A stretch of DNA of 31,192 bases, from UHGV virus genome UHGV-0019120; one strand, given 5' to 3'. The notes below the pieces were generated by a model. It was given only the letters and a program-made list of their open reading frames with translations. It did no database searches and had not been told where the DNA came from. Source of the DNA: a virus. Position numbers and translations under genes: made by a program. Of the stretch, positions 1,329 through 13,196 are shown piece by piece. Position 1 is the stretch's first letter; each line of letters begins with the position of its first letter.

Positions 1329-1694
1329 TCACTTCAACTCCTCCCGACGACGTTCCTGAAGCTCTAGCATTGCGGCTCGGAAATCCTGCCACCATTCCTC
1401 ATCGGCTACTGGGGTGTTCCGCTCCAGCACCTTGTCCGCATCGGCGATCAGGTTTGCCAGACTCTTGTCTGAAATCTTCGTTACCGGAGTCGTTGGTTGC
1501 TCAACCTGCCCGATAGGTTTTATCGTGCTCAAAAGGAGGCGACGGCGGGAAAGTGGTGCCCCACAACGACGGCCATCTTCCTTGCGATATGTTTCTTTCG
1601 GACCAACACACCAGGTTGTCGGCGTCTCGCGCAACTTCACTTTTTTCTCACCATCATTGGTAATGATTATTCCGGTATGGGTTTTGATGCTCAT
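1329..1694 (-). CDS. hypothetical protein
   Basis: 121-aa ORF in minus-strand gene chain; no recognisable motif. Confidence 0.45.
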   Translation of the reverse strand: MSIKTHTGIIITNDGEKKVKLRETPTTWCVGPKETYRKEDGRRCGAPLSRRRLLLSTIKPIGQVEQPTTPVTKISDKSLANLIADADKVLERNTPVADEEWWQDFRAAMLELQERRREELK

Positions 1695-1993
1695 GCCACA
1701 GCCCCTCTCAACGGCTTAACTTTGGCTAATAAGGTGTTAAACAACATGGAGTTAGGATTCATGCCAAATGGCAATTCCGGTTTAGCGGAGTAGTACAGGC
1801 AACCATTTATTTTCCTGGTTGTTATCTGTCCTTCGGCAACCATGCTTCTCAGTCTGCAACGCATAGAGTTCTGCGACACACCAATGTGCTCCGCGATTAC
1901 GTCCACTTTTGAACATGGGTGATCGGTCAGGAAATTAATCACATCTTGGGGGTTAATAATTTTGCGTTTCATTGTCGAGGCGTCCTTATACAT
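1691..1993 (-). CDS. putative winged-helix DNA-binding protein
   Basis: 100-aa ORF; central segment VDVIAEHIGVSQNSMRCRLRSMVAEGQI resembles a wHTH recognition helix and wing; AT-rich TATA-motif promoter region directly upstream (1994-2018). Start may be the internal MKRK. Confidence 0.45.
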   Translation of the reverse strand: MYKDASTMKRKIINPQDVINFLTDHPCSKVDVIAEHIGVSQNSMRCRLRSMVAEGQITTRKINGCLYYSAKPELPFGMNPNSMLFNTLLAKVKPLRGAVA

Positions 1994-2049: not shown

Positions 2050-3117
2050 TCAGGCTTTCAATAGCGATTCTTTTAGATATCGGGCATCAGCCAGGGCGTT
2101 TGGAGTAATCTTGCGAACCCATGCATTACGGGTTGGACTCCACTTAAAGGCGCGTGATTTAAGCAGCGAACGAATGTTTGCCTCTGGTTTGCCAGGGAAA
2201 TAAAACAGGATGCGGTTATCCTCTGGATCTATCTCCATAGAAAAGCCGTCGTATTCTTCGCGCTGTGCTCCTGTTACAGACTTGACCGATTCAAGCTCCT
2301 TAATACGGCTCTGTAGTCGTTTGATTTCGGCGTTATTGTTGCTCAGTGCGTATGAAGGGAATCCGATGCGCCCACAGAAATCTCCGGCCAGTAACTCTTT
2401 GGCTTCGCTTTCTGTAAACCTGAGATCGATTAATGCAGAAAGCTGCTGTATTTGGTCTTTTTTGTATTTGCGAATGGCCTTATTTGCGGCCTTCATTTTG
2501 ACGTGTGACTTCATGCAGCCTTGCAGCTTACGAAGCAACTTAAATAGCGCATCAGGATCATCAGACGAAATTCCATTACGACCAACACCTGCGGCTTTGC
2601 TCTCGTAGTGTGATGCTTTACTTTCGCATTCAACAAACGCTTTTCTGAATAACGCATCAGCTTTAGACAAACGGCGGCGATGGCCTTTCGCGCTATAATG
2701 GTCAACTAAAATCGGCTGGCCTAACGGGATCACATCCAACAGGTCATGCGCTCGCTTATGCGCTACCGCACCTTCTTTTCTGGCTTTTTCTGCACAAGCA
2801 ATATATCGGGCAAGACGCGCGTTCTGGCGTTCCTGATAGGTGTTTACGTAATCATCTCCGCGCTGCTGCTGTTCAAGCCATGCTTTGCGCAGATCTTCTG
2901 TTACGTCCACCAGCTCCGCAGGGATACAACCAGTTTGGGCTTCATAAGAGTAACCATCCTCATAGATACGCCCATCGTCTTCAACAAAGAAAAAGGTTTC
3001 GTGCTCATCGCTTTTGACCATACGACCATTAACATGGCGTAATAGGTAGCCAGTATCAGTGCTTAACAGGCTGTTAGGGTTGTTGATCCAGTCAGAAATA
3101 ATTACTTGTTTATTCAT
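2050..3117 (-). CDS. hypothetical protein, possibly DUF3560-like
   Basis: ORF track gives 373 aa to 3171; I place the start at ATG 3117 (MNKQVI...) because a GGAG RBS lies about 6 nt upstream and the duplicated promoter block begins at 3124. C-terminal FYFPGKP...FKWSP...W motif recalls DUF3560; unverified. Confidence 0.5.
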   Translation of the reverse strand: MNKQVIISDWINNPNSLLSTDTGYLLRHVNGRMVKSDEHETFFFVEDDGRIYEDGYSYEAQTGCIPAELVDVTEDLRKAWLEQQQRGDDYVNTYQERQNARLARYIACAEKARKEGAVAHKRAHDLLDVIPLGQPILVDHYSAKGHRRRLSKADALFRKAFVECESKASHYESKAAGVGRNGISSDDPDALFKLLRKLQGCMKSHVKMKAANKAIRKYKKDQIQQLSALIDLRFTESEAKELLAGDFCGRIGFPSYALSNNNAEIKRLQSRIKELESVKSVTGAQREEYDGFSMEIDPEDNRILFYFPGKPEANIRSLLKSRAFKWSPTRNAWVRKITPNALADARYLKESLLKA

Positions 3118-3123
3118 CAGATT

Positions 3124-3225
3124 TCTCCGGTTTAACCAGGGCGGGTATCGCTCGGTTTCGGGTATAACCATAGGAAATTTTTTCCCACCTGTAAAGCACT
3201 TTTTATATAAATCTATAATTATATA
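3124..3225. repeat. 102-bp promoter/leader block, copy A
   Basis: 101/102 identical to 11972..12073. Read on the minus strand it contains an AT-rich upstream element, TTTACA-N17-TATGGT promoter, short leader and GGAG RBS. Confidence 0.9.
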
Positions 3226-3286
3226 TTTATAGATTTTCGATGTTCCCGATGTCTACACACCATCAAAACAGCTCAAAATGACACTT

Positions 3287-5774: not shown

Positions 5775-5811
5775 AATGTATAAATAACCCACCATTCACG
5801 ATTGATGAGAC

Positions 5812-6468
5812 ATGAAAAGCAACGACGAGAACATCAAGAAAGAAATAGGTCTGCGCATTCAGACTCTACGGAAACAATCCGGCATGACTGCCGGAGATCT
5901 CCAGCAAGTCACTGGAATAGGCTTAAGCACCTTGCAGAACTATGAGGCCGGATTAAGACAACCATCTATACCTGCCATCAAGAAAATCGCGCACGCCCTG
6001 AAAGCATCAGCGCCTTATATCGCGTGCTTAACAGATAACCCGTTCCCACCCCAGAATACTAACGCTCCTGTTATTCCTGGGCTTGTAGCTATAAAAAATG
6101 ACATAGCATCGCACGCCGGAGAAAAGCCAGTGCTGGCGATAGAACAGGAGATTCTACGAAGCAAGAACATCAACCCATCGTCTCTGTCAGTTCTCCAGAG
6201 CAACGATGAGTTAATGTCACCAACAATATCCCCAGGCTCCCAAGTCCTGATTAATACAGACGATACAGAGATTCATGAGGGGATCTATGCCCTTGAAGAC
6301 AGAAATGGCCTGGTTGTTTTGAGGCACTGTAGAGTCATACCGGGTGACAATGCTGTTATGCTGTCAACCGAAAGGGATGCTGAAATGAACACTAAGCATC
6401 TGAATAACGAGGAATTTAAGCGTTATAAAGTTCTTGGCCGCGTAGTTAGTGTTGTCAACTGGTTATGA
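5812..6468 (+). CDS. CI/LexA-type prophage repressor (HTH_XRE plus S24-like C-terminal domain)
   Basis: 218 aa; N-terminal HTH (LRKQSGMTAGDLQQVTGIGLSTLQNYEAG), C-terminal LMSPTISPGSQVLIN and FKRYK...GRVVSVVNWL resembling the LexA/CI Ser-Lys autocleavage domain. Confidence 0.75.
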   Translation: MKSNDENIKKEIGLRIQTLRKQSGMTAGDLQQVTGIGLSTLQNYEAGLRQPSIPAIKKIAHALKASAPYIACLTDNPFPPQNTNAPVIPGLVAIKNDIASHAGEKPVLAIEQEILRSKNINPSSLSVLQSNDELMSPTISPGSQVLINTDDTEIHEGIYALEDRNGLVVLRHCRVIPGDNAVMLSTERDAEMNTKHLNNEEFKRYKVLGRVVSVVNWL

Positions 6469-6510
6469 TACACAGCACGGCGAAAGCCGTGCATTTCTAC
6501 GCTCAAAAAA

Positions 6511-6525
6511 ACCACATTTTGTGGT
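6511..6525. promoter_or_regulatory. operator copy downstream of the repressor gene
   Basis: AAAACCACATTTTGTGGTTTT palindrome (core 6511-6525) adjacent to TTGACA at 6528. Confidence 0.5.
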
Positions 6526-6560
6526 TTTGACAACATGTAAAAGTATAAAAGAGGCTACGC

Positions 6561-6935
6561 ATGGAATTACATACAGCCAATAAAAACGAAACTCTGATCA
6601 CTGCTGGAATCGAAATCCAAGCGTTGAACATAGCGATTGAGTGTATGTTATGCCAAATCATTGATAATGAGAAAGATATCGACTGGATAGAATCTATCCT
6701 TCATCTGGCATCAGAACAAAAAGTCTGCCTCAAAACGGCCTTACAATACGATGTGCCAGCGGTATCGAAGCTGTGCCAGCCATTGATGGCATATAACAGG
6801 GCTATTATTTCTGTATGCCTCATGATTCTTGATGAAACCCCCCCTCTTAGCGACCGCTCAGAAGCTGCTCTAACCCTCTCACGTAAACAGCGACAGCTAG
6901 CAAATCAACTGATATCAACGATAGCTGACCTCTGA
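6561..6935 (+). CDS. hypothetical protein
   Basis: 124-aa ORF downstream of the repressor; AAGAGG RBS; followed by hairpin 6940-6959. Confidence 0.4.
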   Translation: MELHTANKNETLITAGIEIQALNIAIECMLCQIIDNEKDIDWIESILHLASEQKVCLKTALQYDVPAVSKLCQPLMAYNRAIISVCLMILDETPPLSDRSEAALTLSRKQRQLANQLISTIADL

Positions 6936-6939
6936 CTGC

Positions 6940-6959
6940 AAGCGGGCTAACGCCCGCTT
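6940..6959 (+). terminator. hairpin after the 124-aa ORF
   Basis: AAGCGGGC-TAAC-GCCCGCTT stem-loop; downstream tract only moderately T-rich. Confidence 0.4.
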
Positions 6960-6960
6960 A

Positions 6961-7062
6961 TATGATTATAGATTTATATAATTATATAAAACGCTTTTCA
7001 TCAGCCAAAAAGTTGGTTATGCTTACCTCGTTCTATAAATATAGATTTATAGAATTATATAA
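6961..7062. promoter_or_regulatory. centromere-like / operator repeat arrays upstream of parA
   Basis: Two AT-rich blocks (6961-6988, 7033-7062) carrying TATAGATTT / TATAGAATT 9-mers, partly as direct copies offset by 8 bp. Confidence 0.5.
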
Positions 7063-7085
7063 CCAAACACATGGAGTCTCGACAA

Positions 7086-7739
7086 ATGACTATCTCTGTA
7101 GGTATTTTCAACGGAAAAGGCGGCGTAACCAAATCAACAATTGCCCGTGCTTTAGCAGTTGCTTATGCAAAGGCTGGCTGGAATGTATGCCTGATCGATA
7201 TGGATGTGCTTAACGGAACGGTAACGCGTTGGGTACAACGCAGAATGGCCAACAATATCGAACCAGCAATCGCGGCGCAGCCGTGCGGCACACCATCACA
7301 AGTCCAGAAAATCATCGAATCAGAAGTATACGACCTGGTTATCGTCGATGGCGGTGCCTACGCATCTGAATCAGTACCGAAGCTATCTGAATTTCTGGAT
7401 ATGGTTATTTTGCCAACCCGATTCTCTACCGATGACCTGGAAACCACCGTTAACACTGCTCACGGCATCGTTAAAAAGGGTGTACCAATCAAGAAAATTT
7501 GCATGGTGTTTTCCGGCGCGGCTGAAAACGAAGCTGACTATATTGAAGCCCAAGAGTACCTGGCTAATACGCCATACTTTGTTGTCGATAAGTACATTCC
7601 CCACAAGCCAGCTCTGAGCAAAGCTCAGGATAAGGGCTTAAGCCTCATTGAGTGCTCATACGTTGCGCCACGCAAAAAGGCAGACGACGTTATTCAGGGG
7701 ATTATCAACCAGCTTGAGGCTCTGACTACTGCCGCATAA
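7086..7739 (+). CDS. parA: ParA/ParF-type partition ATPase
   Basis: Deviant Walker A FNGKGGVTKST, A-prime motif VCLIDMD, B-like DLVIVDGGA; start placed at ATG 7086 (GGAG RBS) rather than track start 7071. Confidence 0.8.
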   Translation: MTISVGIFNGKGGVTKSTIARALAVAYAKAGWNVCLIDMDVLNGTVTRWVQRRMANNIEPAIAAQPCGTPSQVQKIIESEVYDLVIVDGGAYASESVPKLSEFLDMVILPTRFSTDDLETTVNTAHGIVKKGVPIKKICMVFSGAAENEADYIEAQEYLANTPYFVVDKYIPHKPALSKAQDKGLSLIECSYVAPRKKADDVIQGIINQLEALTTAA

Positions 7740-7770
7740 TATATAATTATAGTTTTATAGATTTATATAA
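7737..7770. promoter_or_regulatory. TATAG(T/A)TTT repeat block upstream of the RHH gene
   Basis: TATAGTTTT and TATAGATTT direct copies offset 8 bp, between parA stop and the next start. Confidence 0.45.
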
Positions 7771-7782
7771 GAGGGGATACAC

Positions 7783-8031
7783 ATGGCCGCACCATCAAAA
7801 CCACCAAAGAAGAACAGCAAAGGCGTACCGCCATCGATCGAACAACCGCAGGTTTTCGACCCGACTGAAACGCCAACCAGAACCAAATCAGGTGGGGCAC
7901 AAATGGCGTTTAACGTCGACCCTGAATTTAAACGCGAGTACAAAACGTTCGCCAGCTCAATGGATATGTCATTGAAAGAAGTGCTGACAAAGTCTTTTGA
8001 GTTACTCAAGGCTCAATACAACCAGAAGTAA
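7783..8031 (+). CDS. putative ParG-like ribbon-helix-helix centromere-binding protein
   Basis: 82 aa; disordered basic N-terminal tail then MAFNVDPEFKREYKTFA...MSLKEVLTKSFELL, a beta-strand/helix/helix RHH pattern; directly downstream of parA; AGAGGGG RBS. Confidence 0.55.
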   Translation: MAAPSKPPKKNSKGVPPSIEQPQVFDPTETPTRTKSGGAQMAFNVDPEFKREYKTFASSMDMSLKEVLTKSFELLKAQYNQK

Positions 8032-8093
8032 GAGAAGGTGACGGCCTCCAGCGCCAACTGTTGGCCGTCGCGACACAACAAGGGGAATTTGTT

Positions 8094-8243
8094 ATGTCCG
8101 AGCAACAATATACACGGTTACTGAAAACTCGTCTAACCGACCTCAAACGGCTGCAAGCTGGTCGCTTATTTGCCCTGCTATCCACCAGGCCAGAATGGGT
8201 ACGTGAAGCAGTTCTGAAAGGCTTAATGCGCTCCAGCGTTTAA
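8094..8243 (+). CDS. hypothetical small protein
   Basis: About 49 aa from ATG 8094 (MSEQQYTRL...), AAGGGG RBS; track ORF 8061..8243 starts upstream. A palindrome GCCAACTGTTGGC lies just upstream. Confidence 0.3.
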   Translation: MSEQQYTRLLKTRLTDLKRLQAGRLFALLSTRPEWVREAVLKGLMRSSV

Positions 8244-8252
8244 ATTCAACCA

Positions 8253-8276
8253 TAAAAAAGGCCCCCGAAGGGGCCT
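8253..8276 (-). terminator. intrinsic terminator for the minus-strand small gene
   Basis: GGCCCC-CGAA-GGGGCC hairpin; A6 on the plus strand gives a U-run on the minus strand. Confidence 0.55.
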
Positions 8277-8281
8277 AATCG

Positions 8282-8404
8282 CTACTTGCTGCTAATGTTT
8301 ATCGTCACATTCAGAGCGTTATCAGTAATCTTCCAACCCTCCCCATGTGGCGTAAACAAAGCCCCAGTAACAACGATAAAAATACACATACAGTATTTTT
8401 TCAT
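8282..8404 (-). CDS. small hydrophobic peptide (about 40 aa)
   Basis: MKKYCMCIFIVVTGALF... with AAGGG RBS and own terminator; track ORF 8282..8464 is longer. Confidence 0.3.
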   Translation of the reverse strand: MKKYCMCIFIVVTGALFTPHGEGWKITDNALNVTINISSK

Positions 8405-8802
8405 TGTATGGCCCTTACAGGCCGTTTCACGGCATCCCCACCGACGAAAACAACGCGAGAGCAAGCACGGCTGCTTGTGCTTGCATGTACGGCAACGGAG
8501 AATCCTCCCCTAAAGTCGGTGCCCGGGTGCGAATCGGCGGGAAGGTCCACAGGTATTTTACGATTATTTTAAGATTAGTAATAGGAAAGAAATTAAACGA
8601 AAAAACTCGTTTATTTTCACAAAATCAGTAACCTACCCACAATCTGTGAGTTTGCAGGCACAACAAGAACCACAATTTTTTGAAGCATAATAGTGGACTA
8701 TTATTACCTTTTGGGTAAAATTAACTTGCTGCTTGTGCTTGCGTGGTTGTTTATACAACGACGTTATGCTGAAAGGACCGCGAATCCGATCAGCACGAAA
8801 GA

Positions 8803-8883: not shown

Positions 8884-8994
8884 GTATTGACATGAATGCG
8901 CCATTGGTGGACACTTTCCGAGCCGTAGCAAAATCTACGGTCGGGATTGGAACCCCGTAGACACAATGGCGCATACCGCGTTAGCGGTTTTTTT
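8884..8994 (+). ncRNA. candidate structured small RNA (c4-like antisense regulator)
   Basis: Extended -10 TGtTAAAAT near 8866-8874; 9-bp outer stem 8898-8906/8964-8972 enclosing two hairpins, one with loop ATTGGAAC; ends at short hairpin plus T7 (8975-8994). No ORF. Confidence 0.35.
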
Positions 8995-9160
8995 ATGCGT
9001 AAAGCACTGCTACACCCAAATTATGGTGGGGCGTGCGGGGGAGTCGTAAGACTCGCCGGTTCGTCATTGTGTCCGGTAGTTCCAACCCTGCACGTCTCAC
9101 CACCCAATGATTGGAACCTGACGGTGGTGAGTATCCTTAACCTTTAAGGGAATCATCACA

Positions 9161-9352
9161 ATGACAAACCTACCCCATGACTATTACGTCAACCTCGTAA
9201 AGATCCTTCTCAAGAAAGCCTCATACGCCGATAAATTCCGCCTGGCTGAAATCATCGAGCGCGAAGCTATGCGCATCGCCAGCAACGATAACGCTGTTTC
9301 TGACGCAAAAATCTCCCTCGTAACCAAAGTAGTTATGGGAGGTGCAAAATGA
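9161..9352 (+). CDS. small protein translationally coupled to the antirepressor (icd-like position)
   Basis: 63 aa; AAGGGA RBS; stop overlaps start of the next gene (ATGA-type overlap at 9349-9352). Confidence 0.4.
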   Translation: MTNLPHDYYVNLVKILLKKASYADKFRLAEIIEREAMRIASNDNAVSDAKISLVTKVVMGGAK

Positions 9353-10494
9353 AAACGCTTCCGACCGTTAACACCCTACAGCCTATCCTGCATAACCAAA
9401 TCCCTGTCATTACTACCGAGTTACTAGCACAGCTTTACGGCACTGAGCCGGTGCGTATTCGCCAGAATCATCATGAGAACAAAGCACGTTTCGTTGAAGG
9501 GAAACACTTTTTCAAAGTTGTTGGTAATGACCTTAAAGAATTGCGGGTAGCTTTAAACTACTCTCAAAATCCAGTTTCACCTAAAGTCCGCTCCCTCATC
9601 CTCTGGACAGAACGCGGGGCTGCACGTCACGCTAAAATGCTCGAAACCGATCAGGCGTGGGATGTATTCGAACGGCTGGAAGACTGCTACTTCAACCAGA
9701 ACGCGCAAACGGCCGCGACCGTAACCGTCTCACCAAACAATGCTCGTGAGGTTGTCGATACGCTCAACGCTAAACCAATGTATTACGTTAAGGTGTGCAA
9801 CAACGAGCCACTCACAACCTCAGCCGATGTTGCCCAGGCATTCAGCACCACAAACAATTCCATCGTTATGGCCATCGATGCGTTACGCATTCCTCGCACA
9901 GCTGCGGCGCGTCACTTCTTTAAAGAACAACGACCGCTGGAAGGAAGCGACCGCGAAATAACAATCTATCGCATGACAAAAGACGGATTTACCTTGCTCA
10001 TGGAAAGTATCGACGGTCCAGGCGTGAAGGATATCAAGCTGGCCTACATTGAAGCCTTTAACGCTATCAGCAGCATGTTAAAGGCAGAATACGAGCGAAT
10101 GCTATACAACCGACTGTATCAGGAAACAAAGATTATCCGAACGGCAACAGAACATCATCGGCTATTAACGGAACCAAACTACCGCAAGACACTAATCAAA
10201 GAGTTTGACAAGGCGACGGAGAAAACTAAAGCGGCACTAAATCTACCAACAATGACTAAAGATGATGTGATATCAGCCTTACTTCTTGATCTGCTCAGAA
10301 ACGTCAGAGCACTTATCAGTTTTGACGAAAACCTGAATCCTCAGCTCAAGCTACTACCACCGACAGGCAAAGTAGTCGACCAGGCTGATCACAACAGCAT
10401 ACTCAGCGTTCTGGATGCAAACCTGCCAGCCAGGACACTACAGGATCTGATAAAAACATGTGCTGATAAGCTGGCACAGAAAAGCAGACCATAA
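9349..10494 (+). CDS. phage antirepressor / regulatory protein (ORF6N-like plus Rha-like domains)
   Basis: 381 aa; N-terminal ITTELLAQLYG...EGKHFF...ILWTERGAARHAKMLETDQAWDVFERLEDCYF resembles ORF6N; central TTSADVAQAF...YRMTKDGFTLLM...IEAFN resembles Rha. Confidence 0.7.
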   Translation: MKTLPTVNTLQPILHNQIPVITTELLAQLYGTEPVRIRQNHHENKARFVEGKHFFKVVGNDLKELRVALNYSQNPVSPKVRSLILWTERGAARHAKMLETDQAWDVFERLEDCYFNQNAQTAATVTVSPNNAREVVDTLNAKPMYYVKVCNNEPLTTSADVAQAFSTTNNSIVMAIDALRIPRTAAARHFFKEQRPLEGSDREITIYRMTKDGFTLLMESIDGPGVKDIKLAYIEAFNAISSMLKAEYERMLYNRLYQETKIIRTATEHHRLLTEPNYRKTLIKEFDKATEKTKAALNLPTMTKDDVISALLLDLLRNVRALISFDENLNPQLKLLPPTGKVVDQADHNSILSVLDANLPARTLQDLIKTCADKLAQKSRP

Positions 10495-11583: not shown

Positions 11584-11964
11584 TTACTTAACGAGGAATA
11601 AAAATGGTTTATTGTTCGGCGGTGTAATCGGGGCTGGCTCGCTTTTGCTCATGCGATCAGTGTACCAGGCCAGCTCCTTGTCAAAGTAAGCCTGATTAAA
11701 ATAGGCCATGAATGTAGTTTCAAATCCATAACGACCGCTAATACGCAGCATCTGATTGCCGTTCTCTGTTTCCAGATATACCTGGGCACGTTCCTGATTC
11801 TCCTTCAGCCAGGTTAAAGCCTCATCGCACGAGGACACACGATACTCATCATCGTAGCCGTCATCGATGCGGCTTGAAGAAGAACGGCAAATCACGCCGA
11901 CAGAACCAGCCAGGATAGTTTGAATTTTAAGGAAAGCGTTTTTGCGGATTTTAATCATGCTCAT
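11584..11964 (-). CDS. hypothetical protein expressed from promoter block copy B
   Basis: 126 aa; GGAG RBS; immediately downstream of repeat copy B; followed by a 27-bp perfect palindrome (11549-11575). Confidence 0.5.
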   Translation of the reverse strand: MSMIKIRKNAFLKIQTILAGSVGVICRSSSSRIDDGYDDEYRVSSCDEALTWLKENQERAQVYLETENGNQMLRISGRYGFETTFMAYFNQAYFDKELAWYTDRMSKSEPAPITPPNNKPFLFLVK

Positions 11965-11971
11965 CGGGTTA

Positions 11972-12073
11972 TCTCCGGTTTAACCAGGGCGGGTATCGCT
12001 CGGTTTCGGGTATAACCATAGGAAATTTTTTCCTACCTGTAAAGCACTTTTTATATAAATCTATAATTATATA
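11972..12073. repeat. 102-bp promoter/leader block, copy B
   Basis: Single mismatch relative to 3124..3225 (CCTACC vs CCCACC). Confidence 0.9.
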
Positions 12074-12231
12074 AATAATAGTGACTGGTGCTTTTTTAGG
12101 CTTCACATTAAACATTTTTGTTTAGCTTATTGGCAAGGTCTTGAAAAAGACATTTCAGCAATGGTATACCATTGAACATGGTATCGGCTGAATTTTACAA
12201 TTAACACATTTTAAACAATTGGAGGTGCAAA

Positions 12232-12516
12232 ATGGCTAAACCAAAATCTGAAATTGATGCTATTCGAGCATTAACAGAAGTAACAATTAAAGGTTTTGAG
12301 CAGGTTGCTCAGGCATTAGTTGATATGAGAGAAGCTCAGGGAAAAGTCGCACGAGCAACATATAATGGATTAACCTCCTCAGGAAAATCTCGCTATGTTG
12401 CATCGCTAGTAGAGGAAGTAGGATCACAAGCTGAAGTAAGCCGCATGTTAAATATCACACCTGGGCGCGTTAGCCAGCTTATGAAGTCCGAAAAAAACCG
12501 CAAAAATGGTAAGTAA
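12232..12516 (+). CDS. putative HTH DNA-binding protein
   Basis: 94 aa; C-terminal GSQAEVSRMLNITPGRVSQLMK is HTH-like; GGAGGTG RBS; 16-bp perfect palindrome CAATGGTATACCATTG (12159-12174) in its upstream region. Confidence 0.45.
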   Translation: MAKPKSEIDAIRALTEVTIKGFEQVAQALVDMREAQGKVARATYNGLTSSGKSRYVASLVEEVGSQAEVSRMLNITPGRVSQLMKSEKNRKNGK

Positions 12517-12549: not shown

Positions 12550-12849
12550 TTAGACATGGAACGCTACTCGCTTTCCTGTAGGAAGCTCAACATCCAGGCT
12601 TAATTTGCCTCCCATAGCTTCAACGTAACGCTTTAATGTCGCCAGCTTTAAATCATTTCCGCGCTGCTCCAGCTTTGTTACTGCTGGCTGGCTTATACCC
12701 ATCGCCTCAGCAACCTGTTTTTGTGATAACTGGAGTTCTTCACGCATCATCTGCAAGCCGACCTCAAGAATCATCTCATCTGCCATTTCTTTAATTCGCG
12801 CCTGGCTTTCAGGTGAACGGCAGGCAATCACCTCATCTAATGTTCTCAT
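12550..12849 (-). CDS. HigA-like XRE-family antitoxin
   Basis: 99 aa; HTH LSQKQVAEAMGISQPAVTKLE; start overlaps toxin stop (ATGA at 12846-12849), downstream of the toxin as in HigBA-type modules. Confidence 0.7.
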   Translation of the reverse strand: MRTLDEVIACRSPESQARIKEMADEMILEVGLQMMREELQLSQKQVAEAMGISQPAVTKLEQRGNDLKLATLKRYVEAMGGKLSLDVELPTGKRVAFHV

Positions 12850-13196
12850 TACTTGCTCTCCAGTGTGTTCAGATGTGCTGCAAACTCATCCTCAGCTATA
12901 CGCACCAGTTTTTTATAAAACCGCTTATCGTTACTTTTGTCTCCTGCACAAAGAACGATGGCCCGACGAATCGGATCGAACGCATAAAAGGCTCTTATCG
13001 GACGGCCAGAAAACTGAACGCGAAGCTCTTTCATATTTTTGTACCGAGAACCTTTTACGGTATCGGCATATGGCCTGGGTAACTCAGGTCCGTAAACCTG
13101 TAGATTTTTCAAATCAGCCAAAACCTTTTCCTGAAGAGCCTCTTCTTGCTCATTTAGCCAGTCGTCAAATCGCTGGCTAAAAAGTACCGTCCACAT
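12849..13196 (-). CDS. HigB/RelE-superfamily toxin (Gp49-like)
   Basis: About 116 aa from ATG 13196 (AGGA RBS); the ...YAFDPIRRAIVLCAGDKSNDKRF... C-terminus resembles phage Gp49/HigB-type toxins; track ORF 12849..13316 is longer. Confidence 0.6.
   Translation of the reverse strand: MWTVLFSQRFDDWLNEQEEALQEKVLADLKNLQVYGPELPRPYADTVKGSRYKNMKELRVQFSGRPIRAFYAFDPIRRAIVLCAGDKSNDKRFYKKLVRIAEDEFAAHLNTLESK

Follow-up and report, generated by a model that had tools for sequence, protein, structure and literature searches.

The window analysed here, the 31,192 nucleotides (nt) of virus genome UHGV-0019120, is about two thirds of a ~47-kb myovirus phage-plasmid of Escherichia coli whose partition (par) operon encodes a ParA ATPase and, directly after it, an 82-amino-acid (aa) protein with a predicted ribbon-helix-helix (RHH) fold. 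TATA boxes in strict 8-bp phase form eight short arrays in the full genome, three at the par operon and five at other genes. These arrays are probably the cognate sites of the RHH partner of ParA, which they would also recruit to genes outside par. Control by this protein at multiple sites is well supported by inference from comparison of sequences. Such phage-plasmids are common in clinical E. coli, yet the circuits for their maintenance and regulation lack annotation. Should all eight arrays be bound by the RHH protein, the element would be a compact case of a partition protein that also sets the expression of accessory genes in a phage-plasmid.

Geometry and significance of the arrays

An earlier note on this DNA, made from its letters alone, had drawn attention to an AT-rich 9-mer recurring at six sites. 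All six are there, at most a few bases from where it had placed them. The repeat unit, however, is not a 9-mer. It is 8 bp long, an invariant TATA box followed by a 4-bp spacer (consensus TATA[T/G]A[A/T]T), which is the geometry of the parH/OF sites of plasmid TP228, and the 9-mer TATAGATTT is a single 8-bp unit plus the first T of the following one. Each of the six arrays in the window has four units, 32 bp in all (A1 to A6 in Table 1, where units are read in the direction of the downstream gene). The polarity toward that gene is the same in six out of six, and the gene-proximal end is always TATATAA[A/C/G] or TGTATAAG. A4 has in addition an overlapping plus-strand arm (TATATATT TATAGATT at 3220-3235). 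The inverted pair that had been described there does exist, TATAGATTT occurring at 3209-3217 (minus strand) and again at 3228-3236 (plus strand), but the stretch is equally readable as a four-unit direct array with the same first unit as A2, TCTATAAA. The two remaining arrays are beyond the window and were located in a complete relative, L001 (subtracting 31335 from an L001 coordinate, with wrap-around of the record, gives approximately the window coordinate). One belongs to the third copy of a cassette described below and the other is upstream of a tRNA-Met gene (L001 28797-28824).

Allowing at most one mismatch, TATAGATTT has 27 matches in the window against 11.7 ± 3.5 in shuffled sequence, none of 100 shuffles reaching 27, and so the enrichment over shuffles that had been proposed as a check is borne out. 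There are 6 runs of at least three TATA boxes in 8-bp phase, against a mean of 0.004 in 500 dinucleotide-preserving shuffles, and no such run in the window at periods 5-7 or 9-12. The arrays are rich in A+T (77-94%). Nevertheless, when shuffling was confined to each AT-rich block of 35-45 bp, such a run was recreated in no more than 1.3% of trials. The window has 30 stretches with at least 80% A+T over 36 bp, and more than one in-phase TATA is found only in the six arrays; the 24 others, though equally AT-rich, have no phased array. The phase statistics and the comparison of AT-rich stretches rule out chance and composition and, together with the block shuffles, remove the explanation by generic AT-richness of −10 or UP elements, the alternative that the earlier note had itself set out.

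The partition locus and its ribbon-helix-helix protein

With a small Walker ParA, an RHH gene directly downstream and adjoining repeat arrays, the locus is supported by its sequence as type Ib-like, as had been suggested. ParA gives Pfam CbiA/ParA/MipZ matches across residues 10-191, is a member of PHROG 164 (ParA-like) and has a weak match to ParF of TP228 (4dzz, E=3e-4). The gene for the 82-aa protein starts 44 bp past parA. Its product consists of a disordered basic tail and a core formed by a predicted strand, QMAFNV, and helices at residues 47-59 and 64-80. It has no match in searches of Pfam or of Protein Data Bank (PDB) sequences, and it is 'hypothetical' in every record examined. An exhaustive HMMER search revealed that it is one of a family of proteins of 75-90 aa, for which a profile search retrieved 1091 members; a scan of viral contigs with the family alignment yielded near-identical relatives only. 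In the alignment a conserved basic N-terminus (MA..KPPKK..KG.PP) is followed by a variable linker and a strand-helix-helix core (LNFKV..EFRREFKxFA...D.SM.ELL...FELYK).

The case for an RHH fold is moderate and comes from profiles and a structure model. Pfam RHH_10 is matched by 13 of 50 family members and Antitox_RHH by nine. In the AF2 (AlphaFold2) monomer model, residues 1-40 are disordered (predicted local distance difference test scores, pLDDT, of 53-61) and the two helices are confident; its best PDB matches with Foldseek are mostly RHH proteins (CdbA, StnY, ParD, AmrZ, CopG, Arc, AtaR) with target TM scores of 0.6-0.8. The earlier term 'ParG-like' does not hold for the sequence. The 82-aa protein has no Pfam match to the ParG family (PF09274), which just one of 50 relatives matches (E=0.018), and an alignment of the family profile with ParG (1p94), although in the RHH register, has E=0.55 and an hhalign probability of 11%.

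Box and strand vary together

Distant relatives were sought in the contigs that encode homologs and among 43 genome loci from a scan of genome contigs, and the flanks of the RHH gene were searched for an 8-bp period wherever a ParA gene precedes it. This gave about 15 loci from several phyla. Arrays of 8-bp period are visible in about a dozen of them, before parA, just before or after the RHH gene, or at both genes, and each has its locus-specific box (Table 1). Two loci, L027 and L036, have no clear array in the par flanks, and L026 is ambiguous.

Loci with a predicted strand PLNF[KR]V have the box GCACG[A/C]AA in five cases and, in L003, TAACGAAA; DLNFKV pairs with boxes of the AGCGATT type ([AT]AGCGATT or AACGATTT) in two. 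The form present in the window, AQ[ML]x[FL][NY]V, pairs with TATA on two unrelated backbones. The box tracks the strand predicted to read DNA, and no other computational evidence speaks as strongly for the TATA arrays being cognate sites of the 82-aa protein. Together with the finding of arrays away from par in a phage homolog (44% identical) and in plasmids with an RHH protein of 39% identity, this co-variation supports at the level of sequence the earlier suggestion that arrays and protein belong together.

An array immediately upstream of the RHH gene recurs across the family, even inside the 3′ coding end of parA, and such an array seems, from its recurrence, to be selected even within coding sequence. 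Where the two genes overlap, arrays in the parA 3′ coding end are at 3393-3429 in L035, 9791-9819 in L043, 1967-1987 in L032 and 2173-2193 in L028.

A separate observation concerns L005, a marine Tara plasmid of the Rep3 type with a family member. Between rep and parA (8920-9290) it has well over ten tandem 16-bp repeats, TTTCTTGCTATCTGTC, interrupted by a stretch of N, and these could be either iterons or a centromere.

Arrays away from par in relatives

The par region (5800-8300) is 99.8% identical to that of non-mobilizable E. coli plasmids of 47-49 kb (61 PLSDB records) and 99.0-99.4% identical to that of three Yersinia myophages, vB_YpM_39, 41 and 44. Annotated relatives encode a complete myovirus head, tail and lysis set as well as repA, a CI-like repressor, ParA and a HigBA toxin-antitoxin pair, from which the element is taken to be a phage-plasmid. 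It is also present, as NZ_CP009073.1, in the reference strain ATCC 25922, matched with the region of a DUF3560 gene. Membership of the pSLy3 phage-plasmid group was considered and rejected, pSLy3 being of the SSU5 supergroup. No paper naming vB_YpM_39, and none linking an RHH partition protein to phage-plasmids, was found in the literature search.

All eight arrays are at orthologous places in Salmonella relatives. In one of these, L009, the flanks of the arrays in the DUF3560 region are ~72% identical; the TATA boxes have kept their phase and the spacers vary. (Counts of box versus spacer substitutions between E. coli and Salmonella are unreliable since overlapping TATATA motifs permit register shifts of 2 bp.) Farther away, the phage-like contig L003, whose RHH protein is the one 44% identical to that of the window, has runs of three TAACGA units in 8-bp phase. 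Three such sites occur in its 13.5 kb, where 0.04 hits would be expected, and two of them are at par. The remaining one (3132-3152) directly adjoins the ribosome-binding site of an unrelated gene, whose 123-aa product has no homolog in the phage-plasmid.

A search with the DUF3560/cassette region led to conjugative plasmids of the MOBC/MPF_T type, L064 (NZ_CP037908.1) and L065 (pESA2), one of which carries cfr. Their ParA is 45% identical and their 77-aa RHH protein 39% identical to the window proteins, and they have TATA arrays of 8-bp period both upstream of parA and upstream of the RHH gene. In both plasmids there is also an array between virB9 and virB10 that abuts the virB10 ribosome-binding site, and plasmids of the pESA2 type have further arrays before another gene of the type IV secretion system (T4SS), before a nuclease gene and upstream of a restriction-modification operon. 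Judged by sequence, array dispersal is thus recurrent in the TATA clade, on two unrelated backbones, and small conjugative plasmids with resistance genes such as cfr seem to follow the same logic.

L064 also has, at 1444-1494, a copy of the cassette truncated by insertion of IS26, with the array and part of the promoter remaining. It adjoins a HigBA/94-aa segment in common with the phage-plasmid and is ~1.5 kb from the TATA-type par locus of L064.

Placement of the arrays and the triplicated cassette

At par, A1 comes after the terminator of a gene for a 124-aa protein (6561-6935) and is 4 nt upstream of the weak −35-like TTTTCA (6995-7000) with which the inferred par promoter begins. This promoter is below the cut-off of the promoter scan; at its position the Salmonella relative L009 has TTCCAA, 17 nt and TATCAT, the same geometry. 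A2 is between the promoter and the ribosome-binding site of parA (GGAG 7073-7076) and, given that promoter, would span the par transcript from about +2 to +33. A3 is after the parA stop codon and abuts GAGGGG, the ribosome-binding site of the RHH gene. Outside par, A6 comes after the DUF3560 gene terminator (2020-2040) and before the ribosome-binding site that serves the gene for a 93-aa MarR-like protein. Neither the promoter scan nor reading by eye found a canonical promoter before A3 or A6.

A1 and four of the five arrays outside par share one arrangement: they end 1-6 nt upstream of a −35-like hexamer and have the same orientation with respect to it. In the promoter scan several arrays occupy −38 to −70 of sigma-70-like promoters. 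The tRNA-Met array is followed directly by TTACAA, 17 nt and TCATGG (read by eye).

Three of the five arrays outside par belong to copies of one cassette of ~115 bp, made up of the array, 6 nt, a sigma-70-like TTTACA-17-TATGGT promoter, a leader of ~45 nt, GGAG and ATG. The duplicated promoter block reported earlier is real (3117-3233 is nearly identical to 11964-12081), and there is a third copy outside the window, at about L001 27574-27690. The copies precede unrelated genes: the DUF3560 gene, a 126-aa gene and an 89-aa gene. Lineage-specific substitutions are common to all three copies within a genome, E. coli and Salmonella each having their own set. The copies therefore evolve in concert and count as one independent context, which leaves three independent contexts outside par. 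The claim that the same element is at several unrelated promoters accordingly stands in part. Arrays at non-par genes are well above chance, but only some of them are at recognisable promoters, and the contexts are three.

The cassette recalls the CUP repeats of IncN plasmids. A structured RNA in its conserved leader was considered and rejected: RNAalifold gave a small hairpin without compensatory changes, and there is no Rfam match there. A 94-aa helix-turn-helix (HTH)-like gene (12232-12516, plus strand) is divergent from cassette copy 2, so that A5 is between two divergent promoters. A HigB/RelE-type toxin gene with an HTH antitoxin is at 12550-13196 on the minus strand.

Comparison with known systems

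By analogy, the closest precedents are ParG of TP228 for the geometry of the sites and omega of pSM19035 for a role at several promoters, and the system would fall conceptually within the ParG/omega paradigm. In the centromere parH and operator OF of TP228, an E. coli plasmid with a type Ib system, tetramer boxes with 4-bp AT-rich spacers recur with a period of 8 bp in direct or inverted orientation, one ParG dimer binds each box, and the arrays serve as both operator and centromere (PMC3130281). Both systems have a small Walker ParA gene followed by a gene for a small RHH protein with a flexible N-terminal tail (predicted here), and both have 4-bp boxes regularly separated by 4-bp AT-rich spacers. 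They differ in that the box is TATA here and ACTC in TP228, and in that there are three par-proximal blocks of four units, one of them between parA and the RHH gene, instead of 12 + 8 contiguous boxes. Five further arrays are elsewhere in the genome. As to the proteins, the 82-aa protein is without a Pfam ParG match and ParA is only remotely similar to ParF.

In the inc18 plasmid pSM19035, of Firmicutes, the repeats bound by the RHH protein omega, with one dimer on each, are short and contiguous and overlap the promoters of copS, delta (the ParA gene) and omega, and the same sites, six in number, are parS (PMC9499535). Full ParA activation there needs at least four contiguous repeats (PMC9499535), and four is the number of units in the arrays here. 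Likeness extends to the disordered N-terminal tail of the RHH protein and to the presence of arrays before the ParA gene, before its own gene and before further genes. The pSM19035 sites, however, are built of 7 to 10 WATCACW heptads of 7 bp, in contrast to four 8-bp TATA units, and period 7 gives no arrays here. No sequence relationship between omega and the 82-aa protein is detectable. The setting is also different, a phage-plasmid in a Gram-negative host, and instead of copy control and a toxin-antitoxin system the putative targets comprise phage-plasmid accessory genes and a tRNA operon.

The likening to KorB of the IncP plasmid RK2 in the earlier note survives as a functional concept, for which omega is the better precedent. 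Sites, putative ones in the present case, are scattered over the replicon in both, and relatives of the pESA2 type have arrays inside a T4SS operon. KorB, though, is a large HTH protein of the ParB family that recognises 13-bp palindromes and controls many operons, those for transfer included. The 82-aa protein has no ParB or HTH domain in Pfam searches, its putative sites are phased direct repeats, and there is no homology between the two. N15 is a phage-plasmid with partition-protein sites spread through its genome, as is putatively the case here; its SopAB system has four dispersed centromere sites, some of them in regions that control phage genes. However, it is of type Ia, with an HTH SopB and single inverted repeats instead of phased arrays. 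KorB, N15 SopB, R388 StbA and the IncN CUP repeats are functional analogies.

What the arrays may do

In the scheme proposed, by analogy with ParG of TP228, one RHH dimer would read each TATA box through a two-stranded beta-sheet and four dimers would coat each 32-bp array cooperatively, while the tails at their N-termini, basic and disordered, would reach ParA. The three arrays at par, of which A1 precedes the inferred −35, A2 closely follows the inferred start and A3 precedes the RHH gene, would together be partition site and autoregulatory operator. The five other arrays, at the three cassettes, the MarR-like gene and tRNA-Met, would recruit the same protein. Four of them, like A1, are in UP-element position; a promoter with the RHH protein bound just upstream of its −35 would most likely be repressed or tuned. 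In this way the partition protein could couple a small phage-plasmid regulon to its own autoregulated level, and the scattered arrays may also be additional segregation sites.

Several findings weigh against this scheme. The E-values of the fold search are all above 1, which is attributable to the tiny size of the domain (~40 residues) and to the model being a monomer; PHROG 6024, to which the protein belongs, is annotated as of unknown function, and no paper on the protein was found. No promoter is recognisable at A2, A3 and A6, which abut ribosome-binding sites. The promoter calls are weak consensus matches, that for par being an 8/12 reading by eye. Three of the arrays outside par are copies of a cassette evolving in concert and are not independent. 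AT-rich arrays in front of a −35 could work as UP elements even without the RHH protein. Finally, most of the distant family members have arrays at par only (within ±10 kb), so that dispersal is not a family-wide trait.

The alternative that survives best, though still unlikely, is that the RHH protein binds the dispersed arrays purely as extra partition sites, without a meaningful effect on transcription. The six parS sites of pSM19035 and the four dispersed centromeres of N15 are in keeping with it, as are the number of units, equal to the minimum for full ParA activation in pSM19035, and the lack of a recognisable promoter at A3 and A6. It leaves unexplained why A1 and four of the five arrays outside par should be 1-6 nt upstream of a −35-like hexamer and in the same orientation, and why the rest abut ribosome-binding sites, since a purely mechanical site has no need of fixed placement or polarity. 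Moreover, the sites of pSM19035 are both parS and operators, and thus the two roles are compatible.

A reading of the arrays as features intrinsic to promoters or UP elements, or as sites of host nucleoid proteins such as H-NS, Fis or IHF, with no relation to the RHH protein, is improbable. Their A+T content, the −38 to −70 position of several of them and the resemblance of TATA-rich DNA to −10 elements would all fit, but composition does not account for the strict 8-bp phase, which the 24 other AT-rich stretches lack. In addition, homologous par loci have the same geometry with boxes that are not TATA and are in part GC-rich (TAACGA, GCACGAAA, AAAGG) and that track the beta-strand, and the array of L003 away from par uses that contig's own TAACGA box.

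There is slightly less still to be said for binding by another protein of the element, for example the 93-aa MarR-like protein (gene at 1691-1972) or the 124-aa protein (gene at 6561-6935). Both genes adjoin arrays, and the former encodes a predicted DNA binder. Neither gene, however, was seen beside par in L003, L007 or L008, nor does either appear in the product annotation of L064 and L065; these five elements all have arrays of 8-bp period. Besides the HigBA/94-aa segment, found in L064 alone, no genes other than those for ParA and the RHH protein were identified as shared with the array-bearing plasmids of the pESA2 type, no whole-element comparison having been run; and winged-helix dimers usually read palindromes, not 8-bp direct repeats. 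Least credible of all is that the arrays outside par are passive passengers, the cassette copied by recombination and the others functionless relics: the three cassette copies do evolve in concert, but the arrays at the MarR-like and tRNA genes are outside the cassette and yet conserved between E. coli and Salmonella despite diverged flanks, the TATA boxes stay phased while the spacers drift, and arrays outside par are independently present in pESA2-type plasmids.

Recruitment of the RHH protein by all the arrays thus being preferred, a wider proposal can be offered tentatively. The family of more than 1000 members, PHROG 6024 included, may read 8-bp-phased boxes by a simple code relating beta-strand to box. 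In its TATA clade the partition protein could be a KorB-like master regulator, of the triplicated cassette, the MarR-like regulator and a tRNA/methyltransferase operon in the E. coli and Salmonella phage-plasmids, and of T4SS and restriction-modification genes in the pESA2 type, tying segregation to prophage-plasmid and transfer programmes. Binding of all eight arrays by the RHH protein would give the family a name and a recognition geometry, and the co-variation of strand and box could be used to predict or re-engineer RHH specificity.

Neighbouring features

Table 1. Coordinates of arrays, genes and promoters in the window, and boxes and arrays in relatives
Feature	Position	Strand	Description
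Array A1	6959-6990	+	TATATGAT TATAGATT TATATAAT TATATAAA
Array A2	7032-7063	+	TCTATAAA TATAGATT TATAGAAT TATATAAC
Array A3	7740-7771	+	TATATAAT TATAGTTT TATAGATT TATATAAG
Array A4	3233-3202 (feature 3202..3236 including plus-strand arm)	-	TCTATAAA TATATAAT TATAGATT TATATAAA
Array A5	12081-12050	-	CTATTATT TATATAAT TATAGATT TATATAAA; distal unit CTATTATT degenerate
Array A6	2016-1985	-	TATAGAAT TATATATT TATACAAA TGTATAAG
Inferred par promoter	6995..7023	+	TTTTCA, 17 nt, TATGCT; 8/12 consensus matches, by eye
parA	7086..7739	+	217-aa Walker ATPase without N-terminal DNA-binding domain; reading frame open from 7071
Candidate centromere-binding protein	7783..8031	+	82 aa; disordered basic N-terminal tail (MAAPSKPPKKNSKG...) and predicted C-terminal RHH
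Cassette copy 1, promoter and leader	3117..3201	-	−35 TTTACA 3195-3190, 17 nt, −10 TATGGT 3172-3167, ~45-nt leader, GGAG, ATG at 3117
DUF3560 gene	2050..3117	-	Downstream of cassette copy 1; C-terminal part matches PHROG annotated primase
Cassette copy 2, promoter and leader	11964..12049	-	−35 12043-12038, −10 12020-12015; would drive 126-aa gene
126-aa gene	11584..11964	-	Unknown function; downstream of cassette copy 2
93-aa MarR-like winged-helix gene	1691..1972	-	Downstream of A6; Pfam and PHROG matches
Rfam/antirepressor module	8254-8550, 8922-8994, 9019-9107, 9161-10494	-, +, +, +	63-aa open reading frame and ORF6N antirepressor-like gene follow the RNAs
L003 box			TAACGAAA
L007 box			CGTTATTC
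L008 box			TTAAAGAA
L020 box			TAAAGGAA, at least seven tandem copies
L021, L022 box			[AT]AGCGATT
L028 box			GCACGCAA
L032, L035, L037, L043 box			GCACGAAA
L005 repeat			16 bp (2 x 8)
pESA2-type arrays, L064	11985-12012, 13762-13787		
pESA2-type arrays, L065	3253-3272, 3755-3782, 7917-7936, 27514-27541		

With a few small genes in between, the ParA/RHH module follows a CI-like HTH/S24 repressor gene on the same strand in four different phage-like elements (L003 6247-9840, L007 8201-10264, L008 5311-10258 and the window, 5812-8031), a recurring synteny of immunity and partition. A small open reading frame after the RHH gene (8076-8243) has no detectable relation to its counterparts in L003 and L007.

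A natural swap of par was looked for in L063 (NZ_CP024829.1, pCREC-544_3, 32,182 bp, a 'complete' plasmid) and rejected. It is a deletion derivative of the phage-plasmid, without cI, the early operon and the entire par locus but retaining repA, HigBA, one cassette copy and structural genes. As a recent loss of par and cI and nothing more, it is uninformative on co-variation.

Downstream of par, three RNAs are above the Rfam gathering score: ryfA (141.8 bits), isrK (67.7) and the P1-type C4 antisense RNA (77.8). With the genes that follow them, the module directly downstream of the par operon looks, by its sequence, like the c4/icd/ant arrangement of P1 immI.

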